Of a DNA stretch of 64,000 nucleotides, positions 1,258 to 34,335 are shown piece after piece. Below the pieces are notes generated by a model. The model searched no databases. It worked only from the letters and a program-made list of their open reading frames with translations, and had not been told where the DNA came from. Position 1 is the stretch's first letter; every line of letters starts with the position of its first letter. This DNA comes from Macrostomum lignano (taxonomy: Eukaryota). The stretch lies in NCBI GenBank assembly GCA_002269645.1, contig NIVC01000819.1, forward strand, positions 62,001 to 126,000. Reading direction: 5' to 3'. A program made the translations under genes and the position numbers.

Positions 1258-4200
1258 CTAAACCCAACCTCCTAAACCTAATCTCCAGTGCCCGAACGGT
1301 AGACTGTTAATATTGTCATCAAAAATGAATCTCTTGTTATCTGCACCTGACAGTCCAATCTTCTTTTGCTGAATTGTGTGAATAATATGGTTTTTAGATT
1401 GTAGCTTTGAGAACTCATGTGATGTCTTTTTGTTGCAATTCAAGGCGTCTCTGTATTCAGCTTCATTAATTTCCTTCCTAACCACACGTTTCGGAATTCC
1501 CTTTGATTTTTTAATTGGGTCTGACGACTCACATTTTACAAAATAGGACTTTGCTCTCAACCCAATGAATTCAGTGATTATGTCACCAGCAATCTCGTCC
1601 TTCATTTTCCCAATCACTTTCTTGTTAGTGCGTCAAACACTTGATCGCCATTCTGTGTCCTGAAAGATTCATCATACTCAGACAAGTCAAACAAATCTTT
1701 TTGCTGCAGCATGTCCTGATAAATGTCTTCTGTTTGAATGTCCATAATAAAACTGTCTGTGTCAGTGTACAAGAGTTTCATTTTATCCTTGTACTGCTGC
1801 TTCATGCCATAGAAGAACTGGTACATCAGACGTTTTGATTCGTCGAGAACAGTGACACCTGTATAGATCGGCTTGCGCAGCGTCACCTTGGTTTTGTAAA
1901 ATATGATCACACCTAAGTAGCTATTAAAGATATGGAGTTCTTTGAATGTTGGCTTTGACATATTTGCCTGAATAACAGCAGGCTCTGATGAGGTAACAAG
2001 TTTCAGGTTTGTTCTTTTCCGCTCATTCTCAAGAGTCTTGCCATAGACAGAGTTGTTGGCCAACTTAAAGAGGTTCTTGTCAAAGTCGTTGGTTGCTTTG
2101 GTCCTAAACTGGGTATTCTTATCAATGTAGGGTTTCATCCACGCTTCCTCTGTAAATGTAAGAGCCCTGTGAACTTTGGTGACCCTGCAACCAAGTGAGA
2201 TAAAATACTGAAGCAGTTTGTAATGGATTTTGTAACGTGTCTTGTTGTTTAGATTCTGTGTTAGTTTCTCTGTATGTTCTTTTTCTGTTCCTGACAGGTG
2301 CCAAGTTCCATTATTATCATTGGGAGTTTCGATTATTTTCGGGCACTTGATGTTCTCTGGGAAGGGTGGAAAGTCAGAGAAATAGTCGTGAAGCTCTGGT
2401 GGAATGTAAACATCAACCTCATAAATGGCAGCCAATGAAAAGTCCTGTTTGAATTCTGATGAGGGTAGCCATCGAAAATCTCTAACTGGAAGATCTTGAC
2501 TCATCGCCCACCCGTAGAGATTATTAGCGTCCAAGTAAGTAATGTAGTTTGAGGGCTGCTCCTTATTGTAAGATTCAATGTAGGGATTGTTTGCTTTTGC
2601 ATACCTGTTAACGCAAATTGAGATCCCCCTCGCTTTGACGATTCGACAAAATTGTACATGTCAATGTCTGTAAGAAGTTCAATGTACCAATCTGGATCTT
2701 GATCCCATTTCATTTTAAGCAAAGATTCCCAGCTAGTGGCAGGCAGAGACACATAATGTGCTGGATCGAGGCCATATGCTGTGTACCAGGTGTATCTGAA
2801 GGTTTCAAACACATCAGCCAGCAGAAACACATCTGTGAAGAGGTAAAGCAGGTGATACTGGAAGAAGTTTTGACAATTAAAGTAATTATAGACATGCTTC
2901 GCGTGCTCATAGTCTTTGTCAGAGATTCCAGAGTCTGTTAGCTTTGAAAAGAACTTCTCCTGTGGTGGTAAACCTTCTTCAAATACGTGATACCCAGTAA
3001 TATTTCATAGGGGTAGAAGCCTTTCTTTCTTAAAAGTTTAAATGATTCATCACTGTTGTAATTTTACTTGCAAACATCTTTGTATATGTACATTGTTCAT
3101 CTTTTAGATTCTTGCTTAGTTCGTCTAGACTGGCAGCTAGAAATTGATATGAATCCTTCAGTCTTATTTTACCTGTACCCGAATTATCCTGTTTAATATC
3201 AACACACTTAAACTTCTCCTTGTTCTCTGCGATGCAATCAAGGTGTATGTCTGGAATCATGCCGATTTTTTCAACTATTAAATGCATGTCATAGTTCTTT
3301 GCGTTGTGACAAAATATCGTTAGATCATGAATGTTCGATTTTAGCTTTAGATTACAGGTGTTATGCGCTGCACCTCTAAATTTCCCAGTAAAGTGGCAGT
3401 GGTCCCTAACGGTGGGGTTTTTAATATCAGTGCAAGTTAAATGTTTCCTGCAGATGTGGCAATGAGTTGCTGATAGGAAATTGCTTTCATCCTCCTCAGT
3501 CATCATTATTGGAACAGGTTGAAGGGTGCTAATAACTTTTTGCAACTCTAACATTCTGGCAATAAACTGCTCCACACACTGCTCTCCAAAGAAATAATTA
3601 TACTCAACAAGTCCTTTTGTATTAATAAAGGCATATGCTACTGAATTGGGGACATGTTTTTGAGTTTGAGTTTGTTTTTGAGTTGGAGTTTGTTTTTGAG
3701 TTGGAGTTTGTTTTTGTGTTTCCGGCATGATTGAGCATTCGAAATCAGCATATACAACAAATGGGAGCTTCTCCATCTTGTGATAGTTCTTAAACCGGAG
3801 ATACTTCTCTTCAGCTGAAGGAAGAGAGCAGTTTGTCGGGTGATCCTCGCATGATAATTCATGCTCTGTTAGTTTTTCAAAGCGTTCAGGTCCACTGTAA
3901 TGCTTAAGGCACAAGCGGCAGATGGCAACAGCCTCGTGATGATTATTCAACTGCTTGTGAATGAGTCTTGAAAGATCTTTAATCCAAACATAGTGAGCCT
4001 CCTCTAGTAAATTACCAATCACTAGAAGATCCACTTCAGTCCGCCTTTTCCCCTCAGGATCTAAAACGTCTTTGCTACATCTGACCGGTTGAACTTTCTC
4101 AGTTTTTTCACTCCACTCAAAGACTGTGATTCTAATTTTGTTATTAAACACTTCTTCTAGCTTTGGGATCTGAGAATCGCCAAGCCTCCTTTGTCAAACC

Positions 4201-5127
4201 TGATTCCCTTCTTTTCGCATTCGATGAGATAGTAGTTGAAATAATTTTGATAATTTGAGGTTCTTTCGGGGTGGTGAGGGACACTATCATAAAGAAGTGC
4301 AGAAAGAACTGCCCATAGAGCACAGCAATTGTCTTTATTTTTAACATTTATGCAAGCTTTTTTGCCGGCTAGCTTATGCGGGAGCTCTATATAAGAGGAG
4401 GCTTTAAGTGGGTCATATTTCATGACCATGACAGTCGCTCTTTGAATCCCTCCCACGACCCATCCGGAACCTCTGGATGTAAACGCTTCAATTTTCTTAG
4501 TGACATCTTGAAGGAAAGGATCCAGTGTGTCAGTAGGGGTGAATGGCTTTGCCTTTGTTGTCATGTAATACTCGAGATGCTCAGTGGGTTTTGCAGGCAT
4601 ATAAAACGCAATCTTGAATGATATCTGTAGTTTAAAGGTCTTGCGTGTTTTGAGTGTGTGATCAACAACTGATTGGATGCTGTCTTTATAGTCGTAGATG
4701 TTTGCGGTGGTATCCTTAATTGGGATTGTGTACTCTATGTAATGTTCTGTAAACTTCCTCTGTGCAAAATTAATCTCTTCAATGGCAAGCTCCGACTCTT
4801 TTAAATGGATTAATTGCTCTAATTTTCTTGTTCCTGCTTATTTTGTGGGTACTTTGCTTTTTCACCAGTGAGAGTTTCGTATTTGTTAACTAAGTTGCGA
4901 CTCCTCTCTTGGTGTTCCTTTGCAGAATTTTTTATAGGCGCATACTGGTTGGATTCTAATTGATTGATGATTTCCAACTGTTTTTCATAGCTTCCCAGGT
5001 GACCAGGGTCTGTGTTAAACGTTTGTTTACATGCTTCTCTTAGTGAATTACTTTTGTCTTGAAATGAGACGCCTTTTGAAAAATGATATTTGTTGACTAA
5101 ATCTTTTGCTGGATTAGCTTTTGGCAT
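1258..5127 (-). pseudogene. Copy A protein-primed family B DNA polymerase, split by several -1 frameshifts
   Basis: Fragments 4819-5127, 4157-4600, 3030-4151, 2501-2830, 1614-2534 and 1258-1617. Motifs include VYADFEC, DHCHFTGKFRGAAHNTCN, DANNLYG, KLANNSVYGK and LLYTDTDS. Confidence 0.93.
3655..3720. repeat. In-frame 18-bp tandem repeat in copy A pPolB (encodes QKQTPT x3)
   Basis: TTTTGAGTT(T/G)GAGTTTGT repeats. The insertion is absent from copy B (ITPTQKH) and preserves the frame. Confidence 0.8.
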
Positions 5128-5727: not shown

Positions 5728-6765
5728 TTAATTAATTTCCGTGTCAGCTGGTATCACTAGGAGTTCAGCTCTAGTGAATGACCGCGTGGGGGATTTAGGG
5801 TTAAAGGCCTGAGATAAAAAGTAATAGTCACTGGAGTCGGAGGTAAAATGTCTGTCTATTTTATGTACATCAAGGCTGAAGTATGGATCTGTAGCTCTTC
5901 TTTTGGTGTCTTTCTCTAGCTCTCCAGGTAGATATAAAAAGCGTAGAAACTCAGAGTTTGTCAGTATGTATGGTGATTCAACTCCTGGAAGCTTAGGGTA
6001 GTTCGAGGTGTGTTTTGTGTTGTGTGTGTTGTGTGGGGTTGTCGTGTTGTTGTCTGTTTTATGAGATGACTTAAGTTCGACAGTGTCTTGTTTAATTGCA
6101 TGGGACGGTTTCAATCCAGTCATACGTGTGACTTCATTGTTCAGTTGCTCTATAACAGTGGGGAGCCGGTCTGTCCATTTTGAATAGTACTGACCACTTT
6201 TTAGTTTCAGCTCCTCAGCTGTCTGCTTAGTGAATAGCCTCTTGGCTAGAGTTAGATTGAATCTCTCAACGTACGCTTGGTCTCTGTGCAAGTTTGTTCT
6301 GCCATAGCGAATCTCTGTATTGTGCTTTTCCATAAGGGATTTCACTGCACCCATGAATTCCTTACCCGGGTCGGTCATGAAAATTTCAGGGTAACTAAGG
6401 GGTGAGTTTTTATAAATATCTTGCAGTGCGCTGGCAACAACCTCTGACTTCTTCGTGTTGAGTGGGCGAGCTTCCTTATATCTGGAAGCAACGTCTGTAA
6501 TTGTAAGAGCATACTTGTAGCCCGAGTCATTGGGGAGAAACAAAAGATCTGCTTTTTGCGCTTCATTAGGTTTATAGATGCTAAAGTGAGGTCTTGTAAA
6601 TTTTACTGGTGGGAAATAGACTTGAAAGACAGCCTGCTTAGAGAGCCACTTTTCTACTCTAGCTTTTGGTTCCTTGCTTAGTTCTGCGAGTTTGGTGACT
6701 GCATTTTTTCCTACAAAGAATCCTTTGTCGCTGTAGTAGAGTTTTTTAAGTTTCTGATCTGTCAT
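5728..6765 (-). CDS. Copy A retroviral-type (rve) DDE integrase
   Basis: 345 aa with ADLLFL...TDPGKEF...VERFNLTL giving the DDE triad, as in Polinton integrases. Confidence 0.95.
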   Translation of the reverse strand: MTDQKLKKLYYSDKGFFVGKNAVTKLAELSKEPKARVEKWLSKQAVFQVYFPPVKFTRPHFSIYKPNEAQKADLLFLPNDSGYKYALTITDVASRYKEARPLNTKKSEVVASALQDIYKNSPLSYPEIFMTDPGKEFMGAVKSLMEKHNTEIRYGRTNLHRDQAYVERFNLTLAKRLFTKQTAEELKLKSGQYYSKWTDRLPTVIEQLNNEVTRMTGLKPSHAIKQDTVELKSSHKTDNNTTTPHNTHNTKHTSNYPKLPGVESPYILTNSEFLRFLYLPGELEKDTKRRATDPYFSLDVHKIDRHFTSDSSDYYFLSQAFNPKSPTRSFTRAELLVIPADTEIN

Positions 6766-6796: not shown

Positions 6797-7267
6797 ATGC
6801 AACACTCTGGTGGTAAGTTAGATTCACATGGACTGATAGAAAAGCTTCCTCATCCAAACAAAGGCTGGACACTTCCCGGCTATAAATATTGCGGGCCTTT
6901 GAATCCACTTGAAGTACAGTTAGATAAAAACAATAATCCAAATCCTGGGCATGAGCCTGTGAACGAGCTAGACTCTGTCTGCATGTGGCATGACATCAAG
7001 TATAGAGATTTTCCTGAGGAGAAGAATCGGTGGGACAAAGAAATGCTTAAGAGACTAGACAATATAGGGGCTTCAAGCGGATTTCGTGAGTCGATCGCTC
7101 GGAAGCTAGTTAAAGCTGTTATTTTTGGTAAGTCTAAGTTGGGGTTGGGGGTGTGCGGCGGGGGTGGGTGCACAGGGAGAGAGGGCGGGGTGGGCTTTGT
7201 ACTGCACGCGCCAAGGAAAAAAGTAGGAGTTCTGCTGAAAGAGCTGGGGGTTGAGAGAGCAGAATGA
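6797..7267 (+). CDS. Copy A protein with parvovirus VP1u-type phospholipase A2 domain
   Basis: LPGYKYCGPLN Ca-loop, EPVNELD and HDIKY catalytic motif. Confidence 0.88.
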   Translation: MQHSGGKLDSHGLIEKLPHPNKGWTLPGYKYCGPLNPLEVQLDKNNNPNPGHEPVNELDSVCMWHDIKYRDFPEEKNRWDKEMLKRLDNIGASSGFRESIARKLVKAVIFGKSKLGLGVCGGGGCTGREGGVGFVLHAPRKKVGVLLKELGVERAE

Positions 7268-7544: not shown

Positions 7545-7800
7545 TAGAAAAATCGCAACTTTTCCTGATCGTTCAGGATTTTTATTCAGGATTTTTTTTC
7601 AGACATTAACATTACTAACTACTAACAGTAGAAAAATCGCAACTTTTCCTGATCGTTCAGGATTTTTATTCAGGATTTTTTTTTCAGACATTAACATTAC
7701 TAACTACTAGCTAACAGTAGAAAAATCGCAACTTTTCCTGATCGTTCAGGATTTTTATTCAGGATTTGTTAGTTCCTGAAGTAGCAGTAGAAAAATCTTA
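7545..7800. repeat. Three ~84-89-bp direct repeats with CCTGA-TCGT-TCAGG hairpin cores
   Basis: ATCGCAACTTTTCCTGATCGTTCAGG starts at 7552, 7636 and 7725. A partial fourth unit lies at ~7785. Confidence 0.9.
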
Positions 7801-7861
7801 ACTTAACATTCAAGAGTAAATAAAATAAATAATGTTACTCATCTACTACCGAAGCGTTATT

Positions 7862-8675
7862 CTATTCCATATTTGTTTCGTCCAACAGATCGTCATCTTC
7901 TTCTCCTTCAAATACAATCTCCAAATCAACCTCTAGTTTCGAACAAAAATTGTCGTCTTGGTCGGCTTCTTTTTCGATCGTTTTCTTAAACGCTAACAAC
8001 GTCTCCATTGAGTATCCAGTCAACGCCAGATTAGGATATTTTCTCATAAGATTATGGAATGTGAATAGCCGCTCGGCAAACTTTATCCCAATGTCCAACC
8101 GCTTGGCCGCCACTTCTGTGCTCACCCCTAGTTGATTTTTCAGTTCGGCCTGAACTTCAGCCTGCTTTTTCCTGGCCAAACAGCTAAGTGTTTCTATCTC
8201 GGCGATGAACATTTCAAGGGTGTTGAATTGCAGTCGTTTGCCGTCCACATCAGCTTGAACAGGTTCCATACAAAGATTTTTAGCCTCGGAGAACCTAAAG
8301 GAAAGAATATTGGATCACATTGTGAATAAGGTCAAAGGTTTGCTTGCAAAAATATCCAATCTATGTCCAATTTCTAAAAATAAGCAAGACTTACCTCGTT
8401 TTAATCACCAGCTGTTCGTTTTTTATTGAATTAATTTTTTGCTTCAAGCGAGCTAAAAACCGAGCTTTCCGGTCTTCTTTATCTTGAGTACAAGATTTCT
8501 CTTTCTCCGAACGCTCTTTTCTTATAGAATTTACGTCTACTTTTTGTAAAATTTTTAAAAGTAAAGCTCTTTCGTGATCTTCTAGATTAGCAATGGCGAT
8601 TGCCGTACTGGCGGAATCTTTACTACTAATACTCCTTAGCGTATTCAGAATTTTTACAGCGTCGCTGGAACTCAT
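7862..8675 (-). CDS. Copy A accessory ORF-X, predicted spliced (exons 8675-8395 and 8294-7862; ~237 aa)
   Basis: ORF 8391-8675 ends at AG|GTAAGT. An acceptor TCTTTCCTTTAG at 8295 restores phase 2 and reads in frame (RFSEAKNLC) into ORF 7862-8269. The intron is 100 bp. Confidence 0.65.
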
Positions 8676-9184
8676 GACGAGGCGGAGCGGACCCTGCCGG
8701 CGGGGTAGGCGGGCTGGGGCGAGGGGCGGTGTGAATCGGCTGTTTATATACCATTGGTGTGGGCTCGGGAATCCATGGATTCTCTTTTTATTCTAGAATA
8801 TTCTAGAATAAGGGAAACCCACAGATTTTCTACTTATAGCCAGTATTTTCTATTAATGGTTGATTGGGGTTGCCTGGGAAAACGGACGGGTTATGTAAAG
8901 AACTAGGAAGACTACTGAAAGAGTTGGGGGGGGGGGGTTGAGAAGGTTGGGGGTTTAAACAAGGAACTAAATGGGCGTTTCTGAAGCTAGGCAAGGGATC
9001 CTTTGAGCTAGTTAAGGCTTGAGCTGGGCAAGCTTTTTCTCTATGCTGCACACGCCACTCGCGCTATGATAAGAAACAGCTGCCATACCCATTCCGCTAT
9101 CACCCACCCACCACACAGCAAAATACCATGCGTAAAAATATCTATTAATGCAGTCTTAGTCTTAAAGCGTTTTGTAGCGACATT

Positions 9185-9502
9185 CTACAATTGCCTAATG
9201 ATTTCTGCAAAGTTATAGTAGCTGTCGTAATCTTTTACGTAGGTTACTCCGTACTTATGAAACCAGTGTCTTTGAAGAGCTAGATTAATATTAGGGACAT
9301 TGATATCAACATCGGGCCAATATTTTCTCATGTACTCGCTGCATTCTAGTTTGCATCGGTACTTGGATTTGTACAATGGATGAGGCTGAGTATAATAAGA
9401 ACCTGGAGAGACAACTGGAAACATTTTTAGAGAAAATTTAGATTTTTTCAAAGGGTAAGGACCCTGCGCTGATGATTTAAAGTCTTTGGGATGTGGTAGC
9501 AC
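9185..9502 (-). CDS. Small TIR-associated ORF of unknown function (copy A)
   Basis: Homologous to 41259-41522, with conserved MFPVVSPGSYY, YKSKYRCKLECSEYMRKYWP and DSYYNFAE. Confidence 0.6.
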   Translation of the reverse strand: MLPHPKDFKSSAQGPYPLKKSKFSLKMFPVVSPGSYYTQPHPLYKSKYRCKLECSEYMRKYWPDVDINVPNINLALQRHWFHKYGVTYVKDYDSYYNFAEIIRQL

Positions 9503-9890
9503 GTTGCGGATTGAATTTGGGGAGAAGAATGCAGATTATTTTCTGATTGTTTCGAAGATGCTATGGGTGGATGTCAGTGGATTATGTCTGTGTCAATGAA
9601 CATAACAGGTGTTAGTGGACATCTGTTATGCACTGGTTCTGTCAGGGATAATATGGATGGATTTAATACGATTATGTTCGAAGTTTTCGGAGCAAGTGCG
9701 ACCCCTCCACTTTTTCATGATTCTGTCGGGGATAATATGGATGGATTTAATGGGATTATGGAGGACGTTTTGTGAGCGAGTGCGACCCCCCTTTTTTTTC
9801 TGATTCTGTCAGGGATAGTATGAATGGATTTAATGGGATTATGGAGGACGTGAAAAATTTTGTCCCAGAAGCCCCCTCATGCCTTCTACT
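9300..9890. repeat. Terminal inverted repeat region of copy A
   Basis: Homologous to copy B TIRs. It contains three GATTCTGTC(A/G)GGGATAATATGGATGGATTTAAT-like subrepeats. The inner boundary cannot be defined without the other end. Confidence 0.8.
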
Positions 9891-22864: not shown

Positions 22865-23348
22865 AGTAGAAGGCATGAGGGGGCTTCTGGGACAAAATTT
22901 TTCACGTCCTCCATAATCCACCTAAATCCATCCATATTATCCCCGACAGAATCAGAAAAAAAGGGGGGTCGCACTCGCTCACAAAACGTCCTCCATAATC
23001 CCATTAAATCTATCCATATTATCCCTGACAGAATCAGAGCAGGTGTCCACTGATACCTGTTATGTTCACTGACACTGACATCCACCCATAACATTTCTAA
23101 AACAATCAGAAAATAATCTGCATTCTTCTCCCCATGGGGCCCACATTCAATCCGCAACGTGCTACCACATCCCTAAGACTTTAAATCATCAGCGCAGGGT
23201 CCTCACCCTTTGAAAAAATCTAAATTCTCAATAAAAATGTTTCCAGTTGTCTCTCCAGGTTCTTATTACAAAACGCACGAGCCTAATTACAAATCCAAGT
23301 ACCGATGCAAACTTGAATGCAGCGAGTACATGAGAAAATATTGGCCCG
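22865..23348 (+). repeat. Left TIR of copy B
   Basis: Reverse complement of 41384-41867. Confidence 0.95.
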
Positions 23349-23363
23349 GCATGGATATCAATG

Positions 23364-25572
23364 GAGGGTTCATCGGAAGTCAGAGTTTAAGGCTACCGCC
23401 GCTCGTGTCAAAGGCCATTGCCTTAAACTCTGACTTCCGATGAGCATCATTGCTTAAAATTTCAAAACTCTTACGTAATCTACGCACTTTATGTACACTA
23501 TCGTGAATTCTTATCAGTCGATGCTTCTAAGGGGGTTTGAGATAAGGTTACCTCCACCTCGCCTATGTCTCACCTTTAAGTCGCGCACCTGAAGTCACCC
23601 ACCCCTTACTCTGCACCCACCCCTAAATTAATTACAAATATAAATATTTGCGTGTCTAGAGATCAAATCTCAGATAGAGAAAAGCGGACGGCTGCAGAGA
23701 TGGAGGCACCGCTCATTAATTGGAAGCATTTGCCCTGCAGTGAGCTGGGCAACGTGACTAAGGACGAATTGAATTTTGTTTCGGAGGCTTCTTACAATGA
23801 CAGAAGGGACGACGAGTTCGCTAGATTTCTCGAATTCATTCAAAAGGAGCCCGAGCCCGATGAGCATCTGCCGCTCCTGCAGGAAGGCGGCGTAGATATC
23901 AGCGCCATGGACATCGCCGAGATTGACAGCCTACCAGCAGACAGCAGGAAGCAGATGATCAGCCATGGACAGCGGTTCAGGACATTCCTCACAGAGGAAA
24001 ATCTTCAGCGCAATTTACAAACCATTCCGAATTCGGTGCTCAACCAATACATTCGCTACTTCTACTTTAAACTGAAGAAGATTGACGGCGAACCTTACTC
24101 GCCCGCATCGCTGGTGTGCATCAGGGCTGGACTGCAGCGCTATTTGCGGATGATCGAGAAGCTAACCGTTGACATCATCAATGGAGAAGACTTTTCTTCT
24201 GCAAATAGCATGCTGCGTGTGAAGGTTCGAGACTTTCACCAGAGTGGTGGGAGGACGCAGCAGTTTGAGCCAATCGAGGAGGGGGACATGAGGAAGCTGA
24301 TGATCTACTTCCAAGGCAGCACAGCTGAAGTTGAGCAGGACAAATTCTTATTCTACATCATATACAGCTTTGGCGAGCGAGGCCAGGAGCACCTCAAGTT
24401 CTTGAAGGATAGAAGCTCACTTCAATTGCACGTCGACTCTGATGGAAAGCCGTACTACTGTCTGCCTCCGTTGCCCTCGAAAAATAAGTCAGCAGATCCA
24501 GAGAAGGCCAAGAAGCAGCCGGACAACAAGCAGGCCAGAATTTACGACGTGGAAAAGGTGGAGAAATACCTCAAGCTGCTTCCAGTTACAACGAAGGACA
24601 ACAATCTGTTTCCTCGTCCTTTGGCCAGCCGCAACGATGGAGGCCCTGTTTTCTCCTCGAAGCAGAACCGTGGAGAGAATTATCTGAGTGGCTTCATGAG
24701 AAACTTGAGTACGAAGGCGGGACTTGCGAAGACCTACACGAATCATTGCATTCGGTAAGACTGATAAATTAATAATAGTAACTTTAATTATGTTATGATA
24801 CATGTTATGTTACCAGTTACTCATGAATCCAACTATATAAATTTGCACTCTAAAACAGGGTCACGCGAATATGCGATCTCGAGGCGGCAGGGCACAGCAT
24901 GAGCGATATAATGAGCATTACTGGACAGCTGAGCGAGCGAACGACTAGGAGGTACCTAGCCAAGCGTCGCGACCGGTCGCTTCAAAAGACGAGTGAGTCT
25001 GTTCAGGTGGCGTTGAATCGTCATGATCTAGAGCAAGAAGCTGGGCCACCCGAACATGCTGATGCTGTTGAGATTGTCGGTGAGACTGCAGTATCGACGG
25101 AGGTTAGTGTTAGCACTGAAGCTGCCTATTCTGTTGGTACGAAGTTTGCCTTCAACAATTGCACCTTTCACGGATGTTCCTTTAATTAGGCATGCAATCT
25201 TTACTTCTACAGGAATCAGCAAATTGTACTCGTAGAATTACTGAAAGAATAAGAACGACAGTCTAGTTTAATATTTTTTATTTAATGACTTTTAGTACTT
25301 TGCTCGACCAGTATGATGTTCATCACCGACAAAAATTTACATGATATACTGACACCAGCTGTGCTTTTTGTACTGTCGATTTTGCAATTCTTGTGCCAGT
25401 TTAATTATTTACATCTTAAAATAAACGTTTTGAATTGACTGGTGCAAAATATGCTTTGCAAGATGCTGGATAAAAACTGGCTTGAATTAATTGGTTGCAT
25501 TGGAATTGGAATTCTAGGCAATGGCCGGCCATTGCCATGGGTCATTGCCATGAGGAGAAATTTTGGGCAATG
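23364..25572 (+). mobile_element. Crypton-type tyrosine-recombinase transposon nested in the Polinton left arm
   Basis: Removing it restores GATATCAATGTCCCTAAT, the uninterrupted sequence at the other end. It is bounded by CAATG direct repeats (23359-23363 and 25568-25572) and has no TIRs. Confidence 0.85.
23700..25189 (+). CDS. DUF3504/Crypton-like tyrosine recombinase (exons 23700-24754 and 24859-25189; ~461 aa)
   Basis: LKKIDGEPYSPASL..IRAGLQRYL, FGERGQE, YTNHCIR, then after a 104-bp GT-AG intron VTRICDLEAAGHSMSDIMSITGQLSERTTRRYL. This gives the R...HxxR...(H>Q)...Y set. Confidence 0.88.
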
Positions 25573-25689
25573 TCCCTAATATTAATCAAGCTCTCCAAAG
25601 ACACTGGTTTGAAAAACATGGAGTAACCTATGTAAAAGATTACGATAGCTATTATAACTTTGCAGAAATCATTAAGCAATTGTGATTTC

Positions 25690-26224
25690 TCACATTCTCT
25701 CAATGATCAACGTCAATACAAACTCTTCACCGTTGAAATCAACACCCACCCCATCTTCAGTCTCAAACTGTAGCACAATCTCGTGAATCTCCTTATTACT
25801 CAATACAACTCTTTTCACTGGATTTGGTTTCTCTACCACCATCTGTCCTCCAGCTACAGAGTTGGAGATGTTGTACAAAATATTAGTTCGCTTTCCCTTA
25901 AATACCCAATCAAGACTGAGATTAGTTCTGATTAGAATATTCAAACCCTTTACAATGTCTGCTATATTGGGTGCTAAGAACAAACCGCGTACACTTTCCC
26001 GGGCCATGATAACGGCCCCCGTCGCTTGAGTGGCGGTCCGCGCCGCGGATTCTGCCTTATAAACTTTCTTCTCGAATCCTAATTCCCTATACCAAGTGTC
26101 ATCTTTAAACTCAACCTCCGCATTTTTGTGAACTTGCATGACCACTCTCATTACAGTGAGATCATAGGATAGTTTGACAGGGAACAGTTTTTTATCTGGC
26201 TTACTCGCATCAGGTGTCTCGAAA
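25690..26224 (-). pseudogene. 5'-truncated divergent second minor capsid (penton) gene
   Basis: Open frame homologous to the C-terminal ~60% of 40340-41197 (FETPDASKPDKKLFPVKLSYDLTVMRV...LTLIIERM). Homology stops abruptly at ~26224. Confidence 0.85.
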
Positions 26225-26380
26225 TATAAGCCGAAACATTAAATTCTGCATTATCTAATAATAAATCAGCACATGGACAAACTCATCTAAATTAAATATC
26301 AGCAAAGCTGGTTTGAAGATTGTGTCTGTCACTTTTTATTTAGAAGAATGAGTAAATAGCATATCATAATTAATAAATTG

Positions 26381-26669
26381 ATAATTGATTACCAATGGGC
26401 AGATGTGCAACCGACAGCTCAGCCGCAGCTATTGCGCAGCTCATCTGAAGGCTGCTACGGCTGTTCAGTCCAAGGACTGGGGGGTCGCCATACACACACC
26501 CTCAATTACTCCAGCCAATGCTGGCACCCATTTTACAGCTGGGTGAACTGAAGCAATGCGGAGTAAAGTTCCTTGCTCAAGGACACAAATTGTTGCAGTG
26601 GGATCGGGAATCGAACCCCCCGACCTTCAAGTCGTGAGTCCGACGCCCTAACCACTAGGCTACAACCCC
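26381..26669 (-). mobile_element. SINE family A copy inside Polinton copy B
   Basis: tRNA-like head with TAGCCTAGTGG and GGTTCGATTCC. The body matches 12891-13140. Confidence 0.85.
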
Positions 26670-26729
26670 TACAGCAGGTGGGGTTGTAGTATATCATAAA
26701 TAACATGTCACACACAGCTGGTACCAGAA

Positions 26730-27150
26730 TAGGAAAAATTTCAACGCGTTAGCCTTTTCTGGCCAATCGAACGCAAGCTAGAGCGTGCGTAAAATACAAA
26801 AATATTTATATACAAAATATACAAAATATACAAAATATACAAAAATATACAAAAATATACAAAATATACAGAATATACAAAAATATTTAACAAAAAAATA
26901 ATTGCTCTTGCAATAGGAAAAAATGCCAACGCGTTGGCTTTTTCTGACCAATCCGAAGCAGGCTAGCGCTTTCTATAAAAAATTCTTTCTTTTGCTTTTG
27001 CAATAGGAAAAAATGCCAACGCGTTGGCTTTTTCTGACCAATCCGAAGCAGGCTAGCGCTTTCTATAAAAAATTCTTTCTTTTGCTCTTGCAATAGGAAA
27101 AAATGCCAACGCGTTGGTTTTTTTTCTGACCAATCCGAAGCAGGCTAGAG
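26730..27150. repeat. Three exact-period 90-bp direct repeats with palindromic CCAACGCGTTGG cores, plus one degenerate copy and an (AAAATATAC)n tract
   Basis: Cores start at 26926, 27016 and 27106. A degenerate core TCAACGCGTTAG lies at ~26741. Confidence 0.92.
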
Positions 27151-27158
27151 TGTCTTTT

Positions 27159-27842
27159 TCAAACAAGTTGCTTCCATGACTGATCATCCTCAAGGATTTC
27201 AACTAATATTGACATATTAGCATTCAGATCACGAAGCGGCAGGGAGACTTGCTTAAGACCAGGGTATTCACTTTCCAGCTTGAATAACTTCATATAAAGA
27301 TTGGCCGACGAAACCTTGAGGTTTACTTTATCGAGAAGATAGTCAAAATTCTGTTTTCGGGCCTTTCTATCGTAGTTTTTGTTACCGTTTTTAAATGTCA
27401 ACAAAATTTTTCCACATTGGATCGCATGAAGCAGACCACTCTTCTGCGACCTTTTCAGACGAAGCAGAGCGCACTGCAGACGCTTTACCACATCACCGCC
27501 TTCATCATCGGAAGGTATCCCAACATCCGCTTGGGGAATTCGTGAGGCGGTGAGCTTCTGTTTGAAGTCTTCTTTGCGCTTAGCTCGCCGCTCTGCATTA
27601 AGCGCCGCCATGCGATCACTCGCCTCCTTCTTCTGCTGCCGCGTTAGAGTTAGGACTTCCATTTGCAGCGAATCTTCCTTGAGCCCGAAAAATCTGGCGA
27701 TCTTTTGTCTTTTCTCCGCAGCTCTAACTGGATCCTTGATTTCTGCTAAAGTCTCAGATAAGACCTCGCATAGTCTCTGTTTCGCTGTTTCGCCAGACAG
27801 GTTTAAACACCAATCAACATCCATAGATGAACTAGAAGCCAT
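27159..27842 (-). CDS. Copy B accessory ORF-X, 227 aa, putative helical DNA-binding protein (DUF3102-like, tentative)
   Basis: Intact ORF. AIQCGKILL.FK...F..LL..V.LKVSSANLYMKLF recalls the DUF3102 pattern from memory, unverified. It has patchy similarity to copy A ORF-X. Confidence 0.7.
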   Translation of the reverse strand: MASSSSMDVDWCLNLSGETAKQRLCEVLSETLAEIKDPVRAAEKRQKIARFFGLKEDSLQMEVLTLTRQQKKEASDRMAALNAERRAKRKEDFKQKLTASRIPQADVGIPSDDEGGDVVKRLQCALLRLKRSQKSGLLHAIQCGKILLTFKNGNKNYDRKARKQNFDYLLDKVNLKVSSANLYMKLFKLESEYPGLKQVSLPLRDLNANMSILVEILEDDQSWKQLV

Positions 27843-28230
27843 TACGGTTTCGGTCGAGCAGCAGAAGCGTAAAGTAGTTGCACATAAAAAACTATAATCT
27901 GTCGCTTCTGTTTCTCAGTGCACAATGCGTGTGAAGATATAGAGAGCTAAAAATCGTTTTCAAATGTACATGCGCTTGTATCTACGCGAAATTTCTGTTA
28001 CTAGCTGTTGCGTTCGATCGATTAAGCCACCCACCCGCTGCTCTACACAAGCACCTAACACCAGCAAAGCGAGCTAAGACTCCCAAGCTCACTCTTTCCT
28101 TTCCTAAGATTGTATGGACAAAATTCCTAGCAATACATTCGCAAAAATCGATTTCCCAATTTTTAAAAATGCAGCTGCTGCGTTTGGCCAGGGCTGAGAA
28201 TAATACGCTCGTAGTTAAACCCTTCCCGAC

Positions 28231-28731
28231 TCAAACGTCTCTCTCTACCCCCAGCTCTTTCAGCAGTCTTCCTAGTACCTTGTGAGGTGCGCACAAAATA
28301 AACCCGGCTCCCGTGCGTTCGCCCTCTCTCCCCGTGCACTCGCCCTCTCTCCCCAAACACCCGCCCTCGGCGTACACCCCCAACCCCAGTTTTGTCTTAC
28401 TAAAAATAACAGCTTTAACTAGCTTCCGAGCGATCGACTCCTTCCACCCGCTTGAAGCCCCTATATTGTCTAGTCTCTTAAGCATTTCTTTGTCCCAGCG
28501 ATTCTTCTCCTCAGGAAAATCTCTATACTTAACGTCGTGCCACATGCAGACAGAGTCTAGCTCGTTCACAGGCTCATGCCCAGGATGTGGATTATTGTTT
28601 TTATCTAGCTGTATTTCAAGTGGATTCAAAGGCCCGCAATATTTATAGCCGGGAAGTGTCCAGCCTTTGTTCGGATGAGGAAGCTTTTCTATCAGTCCAT
28701 GTGAATCTAACTTACCACCAGAGCGCTGCAT
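28231..28731 (-). CDS. Copy B parvovirus-type PLA2-domain protein (166 aa from MQRSGG)
   Basis: LPGYKYCGPLN, EPVNELD and HDVKY. Confidence 0.88.
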   Translation of the reverse strand: MQRSGGKLDSHGLIEKLPHPNKGWTLPGYKYCGPLNPLEIQLDKNNNPHPGHEPVNELDSVCMWHDVKYRDFPEEKNRWDKEMLKRLDNIGASSGWKESIARKLVKAVIFSKTKLGLGVYAEGGCLGREGECTGREGERTGAGFILCAPHKVLGRLLKELGVERDV

Positions 28732-28761
28732 TATTTTATTTAAAATTTTCTTTTTAAATAA

Positions 28762-29799
28762 ATGACAGATCAGAAACTTAAAAAACTCTACTACAGCGAC
28801 AAAGGTTTCTTTGTAGGCAAAAATGCCGTTAGTAAACTCATGGAGCTGAGTAAGGAACCAAAAGCTACAGTAGAAAAATGGCTCTCTAAGCAGGCTGTCT
28901 TTCAAGTCTATTTCCCACCAGTAAAATTTGAAAGGCCCCATTTCAGTATTTATAAACCTAATGAAGCGCACCAAGCAGATCTTTTGTTTCTCCCCAATGA
29001 CTCAGGCTACAAGTATGCTCTCACAGTAATAGACATTGCTTCCAGATATAAGGAAGCTCGCCCACTCAAGACGAAGAAGTCAGAGGTTGTTGCCAGCGCA
29101 CTGCAAGATATTTATAAAAACTCTCCGCTCACATACCCCCAAATCTTTATGACCGACCCGGGTAAGGAATTCATGGGTGTAGTGAAATCCCTTATGGAAA
29201 AGAAAAACACAGAGATTCGCTATGGCAGAACAAACTTGCACAGAGACCAGGCTTTTGTGGAAAGATTCAATCTAACTCTAGCCAAGAGACTATTCACTAA
29301 GCAGACAGCGCAAGAACTCAAACTGAGTGCGGGGCAATACTATACCAAGTGGACAGAAAGACTCCCCATTGTTATAGAGCAACTGAACAATGAAGTCACA
29401 CGTATGACTGGATTGAAACCGTCCCATGCAATTAAACAAGACACTGTCAAACTTAAGGCAACTCAAAGAACAGACAACAATACTACAACCCCACACAACA
29501 CACACAACACAAAACACACCTCGAACTACCCTCAGCTTCCAGGAGTTGAATCACCATACATACTGACAAACTCTGAGTTTCTACGCTTTTTATATCTACC
29601 TGGAGAGCTAGAGAAAGACACCAAAAGAAGAGCTACAGATCCATACTTCAGCCTTGATGTACATAAAATAGACAGACATTTTACATCCGACTCTGGAGAG
29701 TATTACTTTTTATCTCAAGCCTTTAACCCTAAATCCCCCACGCGGTCATTCACTAGAGCTGAACTCCTAGTGATACCAGCTGACACAGAAATTAATTAA
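28762..29799 (+). CDS. Copy B retroviral-type DDE integrase
   Basis: HQADLLFL, TDPGKEF and VERFN; intact 345 aa. Confidence 0.95.
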   Translation: MTDQKLKKLYYSDKGFFVGKNAVSKLMELSKEPKATVEKWLSKQAVFQVYFPPVKFERPHFSIYKPNEAHQADLLFLPNDSGYKYALTVIDIASRYKEARPLKTKKSEVVASALQDIYKNSPLTYPQIFMTDPGKEFMGVVKSLMEKKNTEIRYGRTNLHRDQAFVERFNLTLAKRLFTKQTAQELKLSAGQYYTKWTERLPIVIEQLNNEVTRMTGLKPSHAIKQDTVKLKATQRTDNNTTTPHNTHNTKHTSNYPQLPGVESPYILTNSEFLRFLYLPGELEKDTKRRATDPYFSLDVHKIDRHFTSDSGEYYFLSQAFNPKSPTRSFTRAELLVIPADTEIN

Positions 29800-29816
29800 A
29801 ATATTAAAATAAAAAA

Positions 29817-30272
29817 ATGACAAAGATTGAAACCAGAACCATCAATAAACTCAATAAAATCATTGAATCAAAGAGACCAGGTCTTATATCAATAAAAGGT
29901 GCCAAAGTAAAAGTCGATCCCGTGCAGCAAATAGTTCAGTGTAATGAGCAAAGACACAGCATCACAGATGAAAAGTTAGGAGGAATCCTACCATTAGCAG
30001 CTCTTATCCCGATTATTGCAGGCGCTGTAAGTGCCGCAGGTGGTGTAGCTGGAGGTGTAGCAACTGCTGTTAAAGCTGGTAATGATAGAGCCCACCAGCT
30101 TGAATTGCAAAAGATTGCAAGAGACAAAGGTATAACAATTAAGGCAGGAGAGGGCTGCCCCGATTGTGATGATCGTGATGATTGTGAGCATGAAAATTCT
30201 GTAAGCAAGTCTGACATTGTCAAAGCTATCATGACACTGCACAATGCTGGGTTTACAATAATGCGGATGTGA
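29817..30272 (+). CDS. 151-aa probable virion core/membrane-active precursor
   Basis: LGG|ILPLAALIPIIAGAVSAAGGVA segment; intact in both copies. Confidence 0.85.
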   Translation: MTKIETRTINKLNKIIESKRPGLISIKGAKVKVDPVQQIVQCNEQRHSITDEKLGGILPLAALIPIIAGAVSAAGGVAGGVATAVKAGNDRAHQLELQKIARDKGITIKAGEGCPDCDDRDDCEHENSVSKSDIVKAIMTLHNAGFTIMRM

Positions 30273-30396
30273 TGAGGTTTAAAACCCCACTTTATCCAGC
30301 TTCATAAACCTAGCGCTACTTATAGGATGTAGAAACAGTTCAACTTTTCTATCAGGGTGGTCACCCTCAAAAATTTTTTTTATTTTAGAGAAAAAA

Positions 30397-33300
30397 ATGC
30401 CAAAAGCTAATCCAGCAAAAGATTTAGTCAACAAACATTTTTCAAAAGGCGTCTCATTTCAAGACAAAAGTAATTTACTAAGAGAAGCATGTAAACAAAA
30501 GTTTAACACCGACCCTGGTCACCTGGGAAGCTATGAAAAACAGTTGGAAATCATCAATCAATTAGAATCCAACCAATATGCGCCTATGCAAAATCCTGCA
30601 AAGGAACACCAAGAGAGGAGTCGCAACTTAGTTAACAAATATGAAACTCTTACTGGTGAAAAAGCAAAGTACCCACAAAATAAGCAGGAACAAGAGAAAT
30701 TAGAGCAATTAATCCATTTAAAAGAGTCGGAGCTTGCCATTGAAGAGATTAATTTTGCACAGAGGAAGTTTACAGAACATTACATAGAGTACACAATCCC
30801 AATTAACGACACCAACGGTACCACCGCAAACATCTACGACTATAAAGACAGCATCCAATCAGTTGTTGATCACACACTCAAAACACGCAAGACTTTTAAA
30901 CTACAGATATCATTCAAGATTGCGTTTTATATGCCTGCGAAACCCACTGAGCATCTCGAGTATTACATGACAACAAAGGCAAAGCCATTCACCCCAACAG
31001 ACACACTGGATCCTTTCCTTCAAGATGTCACTAAGAAAATTGAAGCGTTTACATCCAGAGGTTCCGGATGGGTCGTAGGAGGGATTCAAAGAGCGACTGT
31101 CATGGTCATGAAATATGACCCACTTAAAGCCTCCTCTTATATAGAGCTCCCGCATAAGCTAGCCGGCAAAAAAGCTTGCATAAATGTTAAAAATAAAGAC
31201 AATTGCTGTGCTCTATGGGCAGTTCTTTCTGCACTTTTTAGTGTACCTCACCACCCCGAAAGAACCTCAAATTATCAAAATTATTTCAAGTACTATCTCA
31301 TCGAATGCGAAAAGAAGGGAATCAGGTTTGACAAAGGAGGCTTGGCGATCTCTCAGATCCCAAAGCTAGAAGAAGTGTTTAATAACAAAATTAGAATCAC
31401 AGTCTTTGAGTGGAGTGAAAAAACTGAGAAAGTTCAACCGGTCAGATGTAGCAAAGACGTTTTAGATCCCGAGGGGAAAAGGCGGACTGAAGTGGATCTT
31501 CTAGTGATTGGTAATTTACTAGAGGAGGCTCACTATGTTTGGGTTAGAGATCTTTCAAGACTCATTCACAAGCAGTTGAATAATCATCACGAGGCTGTTG
31601 CCATCTGCCGCTTGTGCCTTAAGCATTACAGTGGACCTGAACGCTTTGAAAAGCTAACAGAGCATGAATTATCATGCGAGGATCACCCGACAAACTGCTC
31701 TCTTCCTTCAGCTGAAGAGAAGTATCTCCGTTTTAAGAACTATCACAAGATGGAGAAGCTCCCATTTGTTGTATATGCTGATTTCGAATGCTCAATCACT
31801 CCAACTCAAAAACATGTCCCCAACTCAGTAGCATATGCCTTTATTACTACAAAAGGACTTGTTGAGTATAATTATTTCTTTGGAGAGCAGTGTGTGGAGC
31901 AGTTTATTGCCAGAATGTTAGAGTTGCAAAGAGTAATTAGCACCCTTCAACCTGTTCCAATAAGTATGTCTGAGGAGGATGAAAGCAATTTCCTATCAGC
32001 AACTCATTGCCACATCTGCAGGAAACATTTAACTTGCACTAATATTAAAAACCCGACCGTTAGGGACCACTGCCACTTTACTGGGAAATTTAGAGGTGCA
32101 GCGCATAACACCTGTAATCTAAAGCTAAAATCGAACATTCATGATCTAACGATATTTTGTCACAACGCAAAGAACTATGACATGCATTTAATAGTTGAAA
32201 AAATCGGCATGATTCCAGACATACACCTTGATTGCATCGCAGAGAACAAGGAGAAGTTTAAGTGTGTTGATATTAAACAGGATAATTCGGGTAAAGGTGA
32301 AGGTTCGGGTACAGGTAAAATAAGACTGAAGGATTCATATCAATTTCTAGCTGCCAGTCTAGACGAACTAAGCAAGAATCTAAAAGATGAACAATGTACA
32401 TATACAAAGATGTTTGCAAGTAAAATTACAACAGTGATGAATCATTTAAACTCCTGAGAACCAAAGGCTTCTACCCTATGAAAATATTACTGGGTATCAC
32501 GTATTTGAAGAAGGTTTACCACCACAGGAGAAGTTCTTTTCAAAGCTAACAGACTCTGGAATCTCTGACAAAGACTATGAGCACGCGAAGCATGTCTATA
32601 ATTACTTTAATTGTCAAAACTTCTTCCAGTATCACCTGCTTTACCTCTACACAGATGTGTTTCTGCTGGCTGATGTGTTTGAAACCTTCAGATACACCTG
32701 GTACACAGCATATGGCCTCGATCCAGCACATTATGTGTCTCTGCCTGCCACTAGCTGGGAATCTTTGCTTAAAATGAAATGGGATCAAGATCCAGATTGG
32801 TACATTGAACTTCTTACAGACATTGACATGTACAATTTTGTCGAATCGTCAAAGCGAGGGGGATCTCAATTTGCGTTAACAGGTATGCAAAAGCAAACAA
32901 TCCCTACATTGAATCTTACAATAAGGAGCAGCCCTCAAACTACATTACTTACTTGGACGCTAATAATCTCTACGGGTGGGCGATGAGTCAAGATCTTCCA
33001 GTTAGAGATTTTCGATGGCTACCCTCATCAGAATTCAAAGGGACTTTTCATTGGCTGCCATTTATGAGGTTGATGTTTACATTCCACCAGAGCTTCACGA
33101 CTATTTCTCTGACTTTCCACCCTTCCCAGAGAACATCAAGTGCCCGAAAATAATCGAAACTCCCAATGATAATAATGGAACTTGGCACCTGTCAGGAACA
33201 GAAAAAGAACATACAGAGAAGCTAACACAGAATCTAAACAACAAGACACGTTACAAAATCCATTACAAACTGCTTCAGTATTTTATCTCACTTGGTTGCA

Positions 33301-34229
33301 GGGTCACTAAAGTTCACCGGGCTCTTACATTTACAGAGGAAGCGTGGATGAAACCCTACATTGATAAGAACACCCAGTTTAGGACCAAAGCAACCAACGA
33401 CTTTGACAAGAACCTCTTTAAGTTAGCCAACAACTCTGTCTATGGCAAGACTCTTGAGAATGAGCGGAAAAGAACAAACCTGAAACTTGTTACCTCATCA
33501 GAGCCTGCTGTTATTCAGGCAAATATGTCAAAGCCAACATTCAAAGAACTCCATATCTTTAATAGCTACTTAGGTGTGATCATATTTTACAAAACCAAGG
33601 TGACGCTGCGCAAGCCGATCTATACAGGTGTCACTGTTCTCGACGAATCAAAACGTCTGATGTACCAATTCTTCTATGGCATGAAGCAGCAGTACAAGGA
33701 TAAAATGAAACTCTTGTACACCGACACAGACAGTTTTATTATGGACATTCAAACAGAAGACATTTATCAGGACATGCTGCAGCAAAAAGATTTGTTTGAC
33801 TTGTCTGAGTATGATGAATCTTGCAGGACACAGAATGGCGATCAAGTGTTTGACGCCACTAACAAGAAAGTGATTGGGAAAATGAAGGACGAGATTGCTG
33901 GTGACATAATCACTGAATTCATTGGGTTGAGAGCAAAGTCCTATTTTATAAAATGTGAGTCGTCAGACCCAATTAAAAAATCAAAGGGAATTCCGAAACG
34001 TGTGGTTAGGAAGGAAATTAATGAAGCTGAATACAGAGACGCCTTGAATTGCAACAAAAAGACATCACATGAGTTCTCAAAGCTACAATCTAAAAACCAT
34101 ATTATTCACACAATTCAGCAAAAGAAGATTGGACTGTCAGGTGCAGATAACAAAAGATTCATTTTTGATGACAACATTAACAGTCTACCGTTCGGGCACT
34201 GGAGATTAGGTTTAGGAGGTGGAGGTTAG
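30397..34229 (+). CDS. Copy B protein-primed DNA polymerase B with Zn-finger/endonuclease VII-like insert; four -1 frameshifts as assembled
   Basis: Motifs as in copy A. Frame breaks lie at ~32424, ~32474, ~32860 and ~33040. Conceptual repair gives ...KGFYPYE...LLADVFETFR...RGGIS...YLDANNLYG...YTDTDS. Confidence 0.93.
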
Positions 34230-34335
34230 ATTCGGGCACTGGAGGTTAGACTCGGGCACTGGAGATTAGGAGATTAGGAGATTGGGTTTAGGTTTAAGAG
34301 AAAGTTTAATAAACCTCATAAAAAATGACATAAAA

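Follow-up and report, generated by a model that had tools for sequence, protein, structure and literature searches.

A predicted helix-turn-helix protein and its candidate cognate palindromic array in Polintons of Macrostomum lignano

Polintons of Macrostomum lignano carry a gene, here called ORF-X, whose protein very probably binds its own palindromic site. The protein has a predicted HTH (helix-turn-helix) domain and likely binds, as a dimer, the palindromes behind its own stop codon. At roughly even chances, ORF-X is a stress-induced on-switch that works with a cognate array resembling the hr arrays of baculoviruses, through type-specific channels that also serve gene-less elements in trans. 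The first-pass annotation had proposed that a DNA-binding protein co-evolves with the array it binds, and the predicted HTH, clade-linked sites and joint transfer of gene and site all agree with that proposal.

Two Polintons, A and B, lie in the window, the 64-kb stretch of DNA that was analyzed (Table 1). Element A has one terminus at 9890 and is otherwise only partly inside the window. Element B is complete, with 499-bp TIRs, AGTAG ends and a flanking 6-bp target duplication (CTCTAA); pPolB, rve integrase, protease, ATPase and capsid genes between TIRs with a 6-bp TSD identify it as a Polinton/Maverick of the alpha adintovirus-like kind. A Pfam scan of the window Polinton genes identified integrase, protease, A32 ATPase, double-jelly-roll (DJR) capsid, pX-like and PLA2 genes, and pPolB of element B was called from ORF content rather than by Pfam. 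According to the available text of the adintovirus paper this complement is the alpha adintovirus gene set, and the likeness includes pPolB, rve, an adenain-type protease, A32, DJR capsid, PLA2, pX-like, TIRs and the 6-bp TSD (PMC8502044). The gene map bears out the earlier observation that the ORF-X/array module is inverted relative to the integrase between A and B.

Several other features of these elements were observed. The TIRs themselves contain 84-bp repeats (9633-9851 and 41696-41858), which every family-1 element shares and which differ from the ORF-X arrays. In A, B and other copies alike, the polymerase gene (1258-5127 in A, 30397-34229 in B) is split at comparable positions (the POLN/POL gap), and the split may be an intron or a programmed frameshift instead of decay. 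An independent 2.2-kb tyrosine-recombinase (YR) transposon, presumably Crypton-like, has inserted into element B next to the inner edge of its left TIR (23359-25573); many copies with 94-100% identity occur elsewhere in the genome, and it is absent from C1330, the sister copy of element B. Another penton fragment, diverged (73%) from the first, also lies at the left end of B, together with subterminal sequence and a SINE-like insert (25568-26225, 26395-26665). The diverged fragment suggests that the XB cassette may have arrived with the end of another element.

Table 1. Features of the ORF-X modules and their host elements in the window.
Feature	Positions	Strand	Remarks
rve integrase, element A	5728..6765	-	PF00665
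PLA2-like gene, element A, convergent with ORF-X A	6797..7267	+	PF08398, E 2.6e-14
Array A, 2.6 x 84-89 bp, TCCTGA-N4-TCAGGA dyads at 7563-7578, 7647-7662 and 7736-7751	7545..7770		repeat span 7545-7767
ORF-X A exon 2: long helix, predicted helix-turn-helix/ParB-DBD-like domain, acidic tail	7862..8294	-	alignments, P0002 model, fold searches
ORF-X A intron, 100-nt, GT-AG, in-frame	8295..8394	-	skipped in contigs of X1, X5, X6
ORF-X A exon 1: N-terminal helices, charged long helix	8395..8675	-	
TATA box and CCAAT box, ORF-X A promoter	8744..8757	-	TATATAA 75 nt before ATG
Presumed four-unit heat-shock element (TTCnnGAAnnTTCnnGAA), perfect, upstream of ORF-X A	8791..8808		sequence, scan
Subterminal region and TIR of element A	9185..9890		
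Polinton element B: TIRs, pPolB (in pieces), protease, ATPase, capsid genes	22865..41867		
Degenerate fourth unit of array B, core 26741-26752	26715..26790		
Array B, 2.7 x 90 bp, dyads CCAACGCGTTGG at 26926, 27016 and 27106	26902..27148		
ORF-X B, 227 aa, single exon, B clade	27159..27842	-	no HSE, no acidic tail
PLA2-like gene, element B, tandem to and upstream of ORF-X B	28231..28731	-	92% to A copy
rve integrase, element B	28762..29799	+	

A single ORF of about 230 aa beginning M(A)SSS had been described next to PLA2 in both elements. An ORF-X is present at this place in both, but ORF-X A is a two-exon gene encoding 237 aa. Its intron of exactly 100 nt is missing from contigs of 3/4 runs (X1, X5 and X6, from three studies) and retained in X15; these intron-skipping contigs are the evidence for splicing. 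None of the runs is registered as RNA, and their RNA origin is a guess. Intron-less paralogs and the annotated protein P0002 are continuous across the splice junction. The promoter contains a perfect four-unit repeat that fits the consensus of a heat-shock element (HSE), and the protein ends in an acidic tail (charge -12). At the start of ORF-X B no HSE was found in a promoter scan, and its C terminus lacks an acidic tail. Across the family an HSE is present at 10/17 ORF-X starts examined and absent from 7/17. The last 30 amino acids have a net charge of -6 to -15 in 9/9 A-site types tested; B types and XG have no acidic tail.

Direct repeats of 84-90 bp had been reported behind each ORF-X stop codon, and both arrays are present, with 2.6 copies in A and 2.7 copies plus a degenerate fourth unit in B. 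They were also said to be unrelated in sequence, each with a dyad core. This was correct, as they have nothing in common beyond a 13-nt match (E 0.14) and each has three intact dyads. Every unit of array A contains a minus-strand AATAAA, and no Rfam match was found for the arrays. Dyads with equal arm length arose in 374/2000 shuffled units for A and 65/2000 for B. One dyad alone is near chance; the evidence lies in the comparison across types. Within the window the A motif occurs three times, all in array A, and AACGCGTT four times, all in array B; no A or B sites were found at other promoters there. The exact XA site occurs 12 times in the genome, 12/12 beside the four XA genes, and the exact XB site 25 times, 25/25 beside eight XB genes.

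The A and B proteins had been described as highly diverged with shared patches. BLASTP of XA directly against XB gave no significant match (E 0.32), and the relationship emerged from profiles instead. When the A and B clades were compared profile against profile with database homologs included, the C-terminal 63 columns matched with P=92% and E 6.6e-7; without the database homologs P was only 7.5%. By this comparison A and B are remote homologs, visible only at the profile level. Searches of the 764-Mb genome with four queries gave at least 54, 96, 91 and 59 ORF-X matches (overlapping sets), from which 23 types were drawn for a tree. There are at least 23 types, distributed across two Polinton families. 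A profile search of 1.84 billion protein representatives returned 55 matches. Among the 20 that were looked up, 3 clusters were from M. lignano and 17 were unnamed or 'hypothetical' proteins of ENA, Logan or JGI, and these homologs show by their similarity that the family is not confined to M. lignano. Locus searches for homologs outside Macrostomum found no relative. Single-sequence searches of Pfam, of a 5.8-billion-protein set with XB and of PDB sequences were empty, and Atlas gave leads only. PHROGs yielded 8 weak single-member matches. Pfam applied to 61 family members gave scattered weak HTH matches, with PF17762 in 1/61 (E 0.007).

Structure models were used to examine the proposed DNA-binding fold. 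P0002, which is 46% identical to XA exon 2, gave a model (pLDDT 92) with a helical N terminus, a long charged helix, a long helix at 113-152, an HTH at 156-182 and trailing helices. Of 48,161 chains compared, KorB is structurally closest to this model (Z 6.1, rmsd 3.0, 79 aa), and the ten best of 401 re-aligned Foldseek candidates all belong to the ParB/KorB/Noc/VirB/Spo0J group. By Foldseek's own scoring no match to the P0002 model had E<=0.001 (best E 0.9). The XB model (pLDDT 85) matches Spo0J (Z 5.2) and KorB (Z 5.0) at ranks of only 7 and 16. All these structural scores, Z 5.0-6.2, fall below the trust level of the tool (Z<8). The ParB alignments are confined to residues ~113-230. An N-terminal ParB/Srx CTPase domain is absent, as both models are all-helical over the N-terminal 90 residues, and no ParA/SopA ATPase partner was found among 15 window proteins scanned, in which the sole ATPase is the A32 packaging type. 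The fold matches listed include neither a Rep winged helix nor an EBNA1 fold. A BFVD fold search gave no IE1 among the matches listed and none at E<=0.001, and Pfam gave no IE1 match. These models predict a DNA-binding fold, as had been anticipated. ORF-X likely contains an HTH, and its domain is closest to the ParB/KorB DNA-binding domain, although that match is weak and ParB ancestry is unproven.

To what extent the site changes with the protein was assessed across genomic copies. Nearly every intact ORF-X type has a palindrome behind the gene, single or arrayed, with periods of 18 to 181 bp. Eleven types have the A-site class, TYCTG-N5-7-CAGRA or an inverted pair. The B-clade class, AACGCGTT, is found in three types whose proteins are 27-37% identical, the E-clade class has ACATG...CATGT outer arms (4 types), and XG has a palindrome of its own kind. 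A motif of the own clade lies no more than 900 nt away in 18/18 types, compared with 0, 1 and 0 matches for the three motifs in 169 kb of background; because these 18 types also supplied the three patterns, the 18/18 and the permutation p are circular. A held-out set of 20 regions lay outside the pattern definition. In it the A motif is present in 7/8 copies of A-site types and 0/11 non-A regions, and one broken XA2-like copy is without it. Nine regions of new types match none of the three patterns. XM carries TTTACGAAGCTTCGTAAA in a 119-bp array, 2/3 copies of XN have a related dyad, and XP has another palindrome; no clear palindrome was found in the held-out regions of XO and L140. XK, an E-clade protein, has a foreign B core inside its site, and both held-out XK copies miss the E pattern, one of them having the B core.

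On the tree of 23 types the eight site labels need seven changes, which is the minimum. As kin share labels, this shows clustering only, and linkage alone could explain the concordance. The recognition helix reads I-x-x-K-[FYK]-[AGT]-[EQ]-R in 11/11 A-site types, and XG and XP, which have other palindromes, differ at its residues. Between XA and XA2, XA3 or XA4 synonymous sites are saturated (pS 0.80-0.90, pN 0.23-0.27) and the dyad arms are still kept. Arms are conserved and spacers variable across unrelated repeat periods (18, 70, 84, 89 and 181 bp). In these alignments the class of site goes with the protein clade and with the recognition-helix residues, also where synonymous divergence is saturated. 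The expected co-variation is found between site class and clade; XK, XO and L140 count against it. The XA3 array unit (L047, L046, L050) is itself HSE-like, with 15/18 positions matching the promoter HSE, and cross-talk of A-type proteins with heat-shock factor through this unit is possible.

A single slot behind the subterminal promoter can hold different ORF-X types; alternatively these stand in tandem with PLA2 or occupy the penton end. The second Polinton family, whose polymerase is 25-34% identical, has its own slot that holds XA6, XA8, XD, XG, XI or XJ. XD is 92% identical between the two families from 17 nt before the ATG to the end of the palindrome pair, and at XI and XA8 loci alignability resumes just past the site. 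These boundaries of similarity show that gene and site are transferred together. Inactivation of the old XA2 site after XD replaces XA2 was rejected as a general rule, as 4/4 sites are altered in L065 and the sites are intact in L137, L165 and L166. On contig C2523 of G000, XA2 and XA4 cassettes lie 15 kb apart (L042, L045), likely at opposite ends of one element. Elsewhere in G000 (C273, C1391, C1113, C2447/C1450; L061-L064, L079, L080), broken ORF-X types and Polinton fragments form clusters in the same orientation, which could be nested insertions or piRNA-cluster-like traps.

Many copies of the site have no gene beside them. There are 81 XA2 sites in the genome, spread over 33 contigs, and on 15 of these contigs an ORF-X match lies alongside. 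The other 18/33 loci, without ORF-X, were examined together with two XD controls. All 18/18 gene-less loci have mixed XA2+XD arrays, 17 have no HSE, and most have another gene, ORF-Y, instead. Seven were traced further. Five of these reach the far TIR with a full gene set and no ORF-X match, one ends at the contig end, and one was not followed to its end. One of the five, the element on C522, has XA2 and XD sites at one end and XF and XE sites at the other, four site types in all, and no ORF-X. ORF-Y, of about 100 aa and apparently spliced, lies between PLA2 and the array (L147-L164, e.g. L149:3092-3397). It has 28 matches in the genome, belongs to no Pfam family and shows no homology to ORF-X. 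The five full-length elements indicate that ORF-X is dispensable in cis and that sites are kept and mixed without it. Strict linkage of gene and array, as first assumed, does not hold. Arrays in complete elements without ORF-X fit a cis site served in trans, and cognate binding is not refuted by them. Copies of ORF-Y in gene-less elements are 87-95% identical, which points to a recent expansion in which the arrays may be hitch-hiking neutrally.

As an on-switch, ORF-X would be induced by heat-shock factor from the subterminal promoter and would bind its cognate array. A-type proteins would then activate transcription through the acidic tail, the array serving as hr-like enhancer. A given protein and its site would form a private channel, and gene-less elements would gather several site types and be turned on by helpers acting in trans. 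Proteins of the B clade, without the tail, may work differently. Counting against the on-switch is the dN/dS of 0.68 between XB and an 83% relative.

Cognate binding might instead serve a complex that tethers, partitions, replicates or packages the excised linear genome, by the logic of EBNA1/FR, ParB/parS or adenovirus packaging signals. The ParB-type DNA-binding domain as best fold match, the position of arrays 2-4 kb from a terminus and a B clade without activation tail would suit such a role, and retention and collection of sites in gene-less elements suit any positive role in cis. We nevertheless consider it rather unlikely. Neither model has the ParB N-terminal CTPase domain, the sole ATPase in element B is of the A32 packaging type, and complete elements spread without ORF-X. 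Polintons have a protein-primed polymerase and initiate replication at their termini. The HSE promoter suggests an inducible switch, and heat-shock promoters together with acidic tails in A-site types favor transcriptional activation over episome maintenance. The iteron-like maintenance role suggested by the first-pass annotation is disfavored on these grounds. It is improbable that ORF-X is a repressor conferring type-specific immunity or negative autoregulation, as in lambdoid immunity regions or KorB. One conserved slot with many specificity types would be expected of such a system, the top fold match KorB is a repressor, and A-type half-sites resemble the HSE repeat, so that ORF-X might compete with heat-shock factor. 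Yet the sites lie behind the gene with none in promoters, the tails are acidic, and it can be argued that an element which loses the gene has little to gain from acquiring four repressor sites.

The match between ORF-X and array could also be mere linkage, with arrays that are host-factor sites or 3' processing signals which unequal crossing-over has multiplied. The AATAAA in each A unit, the HSE-like XA3 unit, the persistence of arrays without ORF-X and single dyads near chance are compatible with this, as are ACGCGT and CCAAT words in B, presumably common host-factor sites. It is made quite improbable by arms that stay conserved with variable spacers despite saturated divergence and unrelated periods, by sites that change with the recognition-helix residues, by a transferred unit that stops right behind the site, and by the lack of an Rfam match. 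Units of a gene plus downstream palindrome that are exchanged and inverted, and a YR gene inside element B, recall integron-like cassettes with palindromes as recombination sites. This idea was rejected and is largely excluded. The YR gene belongs to a separate 2.2-kb transposon with many dispersed copies that is absent from the sister copy of B, and the sites are type-specific, with no site common to all cassettes.

The logic of a regulator with its array is already known from other viruses and plasmids. In baculoviruses, according to the available text of the two papers, hr are arrays of 3-8 short palindrome-bearing repeats that act as enhancer and origin (PMC4535591), and the immediate-early protein IE1 stimulates promoters through 28-mer palindromes (PMC2834656). 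ORF-X resembles IE1/hr in being a viral protein with an array whose short repeats each contain a palindrome. It differs in that no sequence or fold link was found, one array lies directly behind the gene whereas hr are dispersed, many specificity types are co-resident, and the carrier is an integrating linear Polinton. In the models the HTH and trailing helices of ParB, Noc, KorB, SopB and VirB align with ORF-X over 70-90 residues (Z 5-6.2). The match is weak, and ORF-X, a spliced eukaryotic gene with a Pol II promoter, has no CTPase domain or ParA partner and has different site sequences. EBNA1/FR, LANA/TR and papillomavirus E2/LCR combine a virus-encoded dimeric binder with a multi-copy palindromic array, as proposed for ORF-X. 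ORF-X differs in its predicted fold, with no EBNA1 fold among the matches listed, and in its presumed heat-shock promoter and type switching. Lambdoid immunity modules are exchangeable regulator-plus-operator units with many specificities in one slot; ORF-X is eukaryotic, has sites downstream of the gene and shows signs of activation, not repression. In ParB/Noc, specificity is switched by a few residues, as stated in the available part of that paper (PMC7383237).

No earlier description of such a module in Polintons was found, in line with the first-pass annotation. The available text of the adintovirus paper and its supplement mentions no DNA-binding regulator or palindrome array (PMC8502044). 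The literature searched, of which this paper, PMC11296320, bioRxiv 10.64898/2026.06.19.733378 and an IE1 preprint (10.64898/2026.05.26.727872) were available in part, contains no Polinton HTH/palindrome module and no Polinton-encoded regulator or cis-regulatory site; subscription journals, Repbase and bioRxiv supplements lay outside its scope. With unnamed Adintoc families and Repbase ORFs outside the comparison, the points of note are that such a module occurs in animal Polintons, how many candidate orthogonal types it has, and that gene-less elements collect its sites.

These results bear on how animal Polintons switch on and whether they leave the chromosome as viruses. They offer a candidate protein, a site, a presumed inducer (heat shock) and a laboratory host for stepwise work, as well as a natural panel of at least 23 candidate orthogonal protein/palindrome pairs with a readable recognition-helix code. 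Tentatively, and at somewhat less than an even chance, the family would be a ParB-like HTH switch tied to the host heat-shock response, with dozens of orthogonal protein/site pairs swapped between families and complete gene-less 'eavesdropper' elements collecting sites for activation by helpers, that is, prophage-like induction and cheating in an animal genome. If this reading is true, the gene-less elements exemplify helper/cheater dynamics in endogenous DNA viruses.
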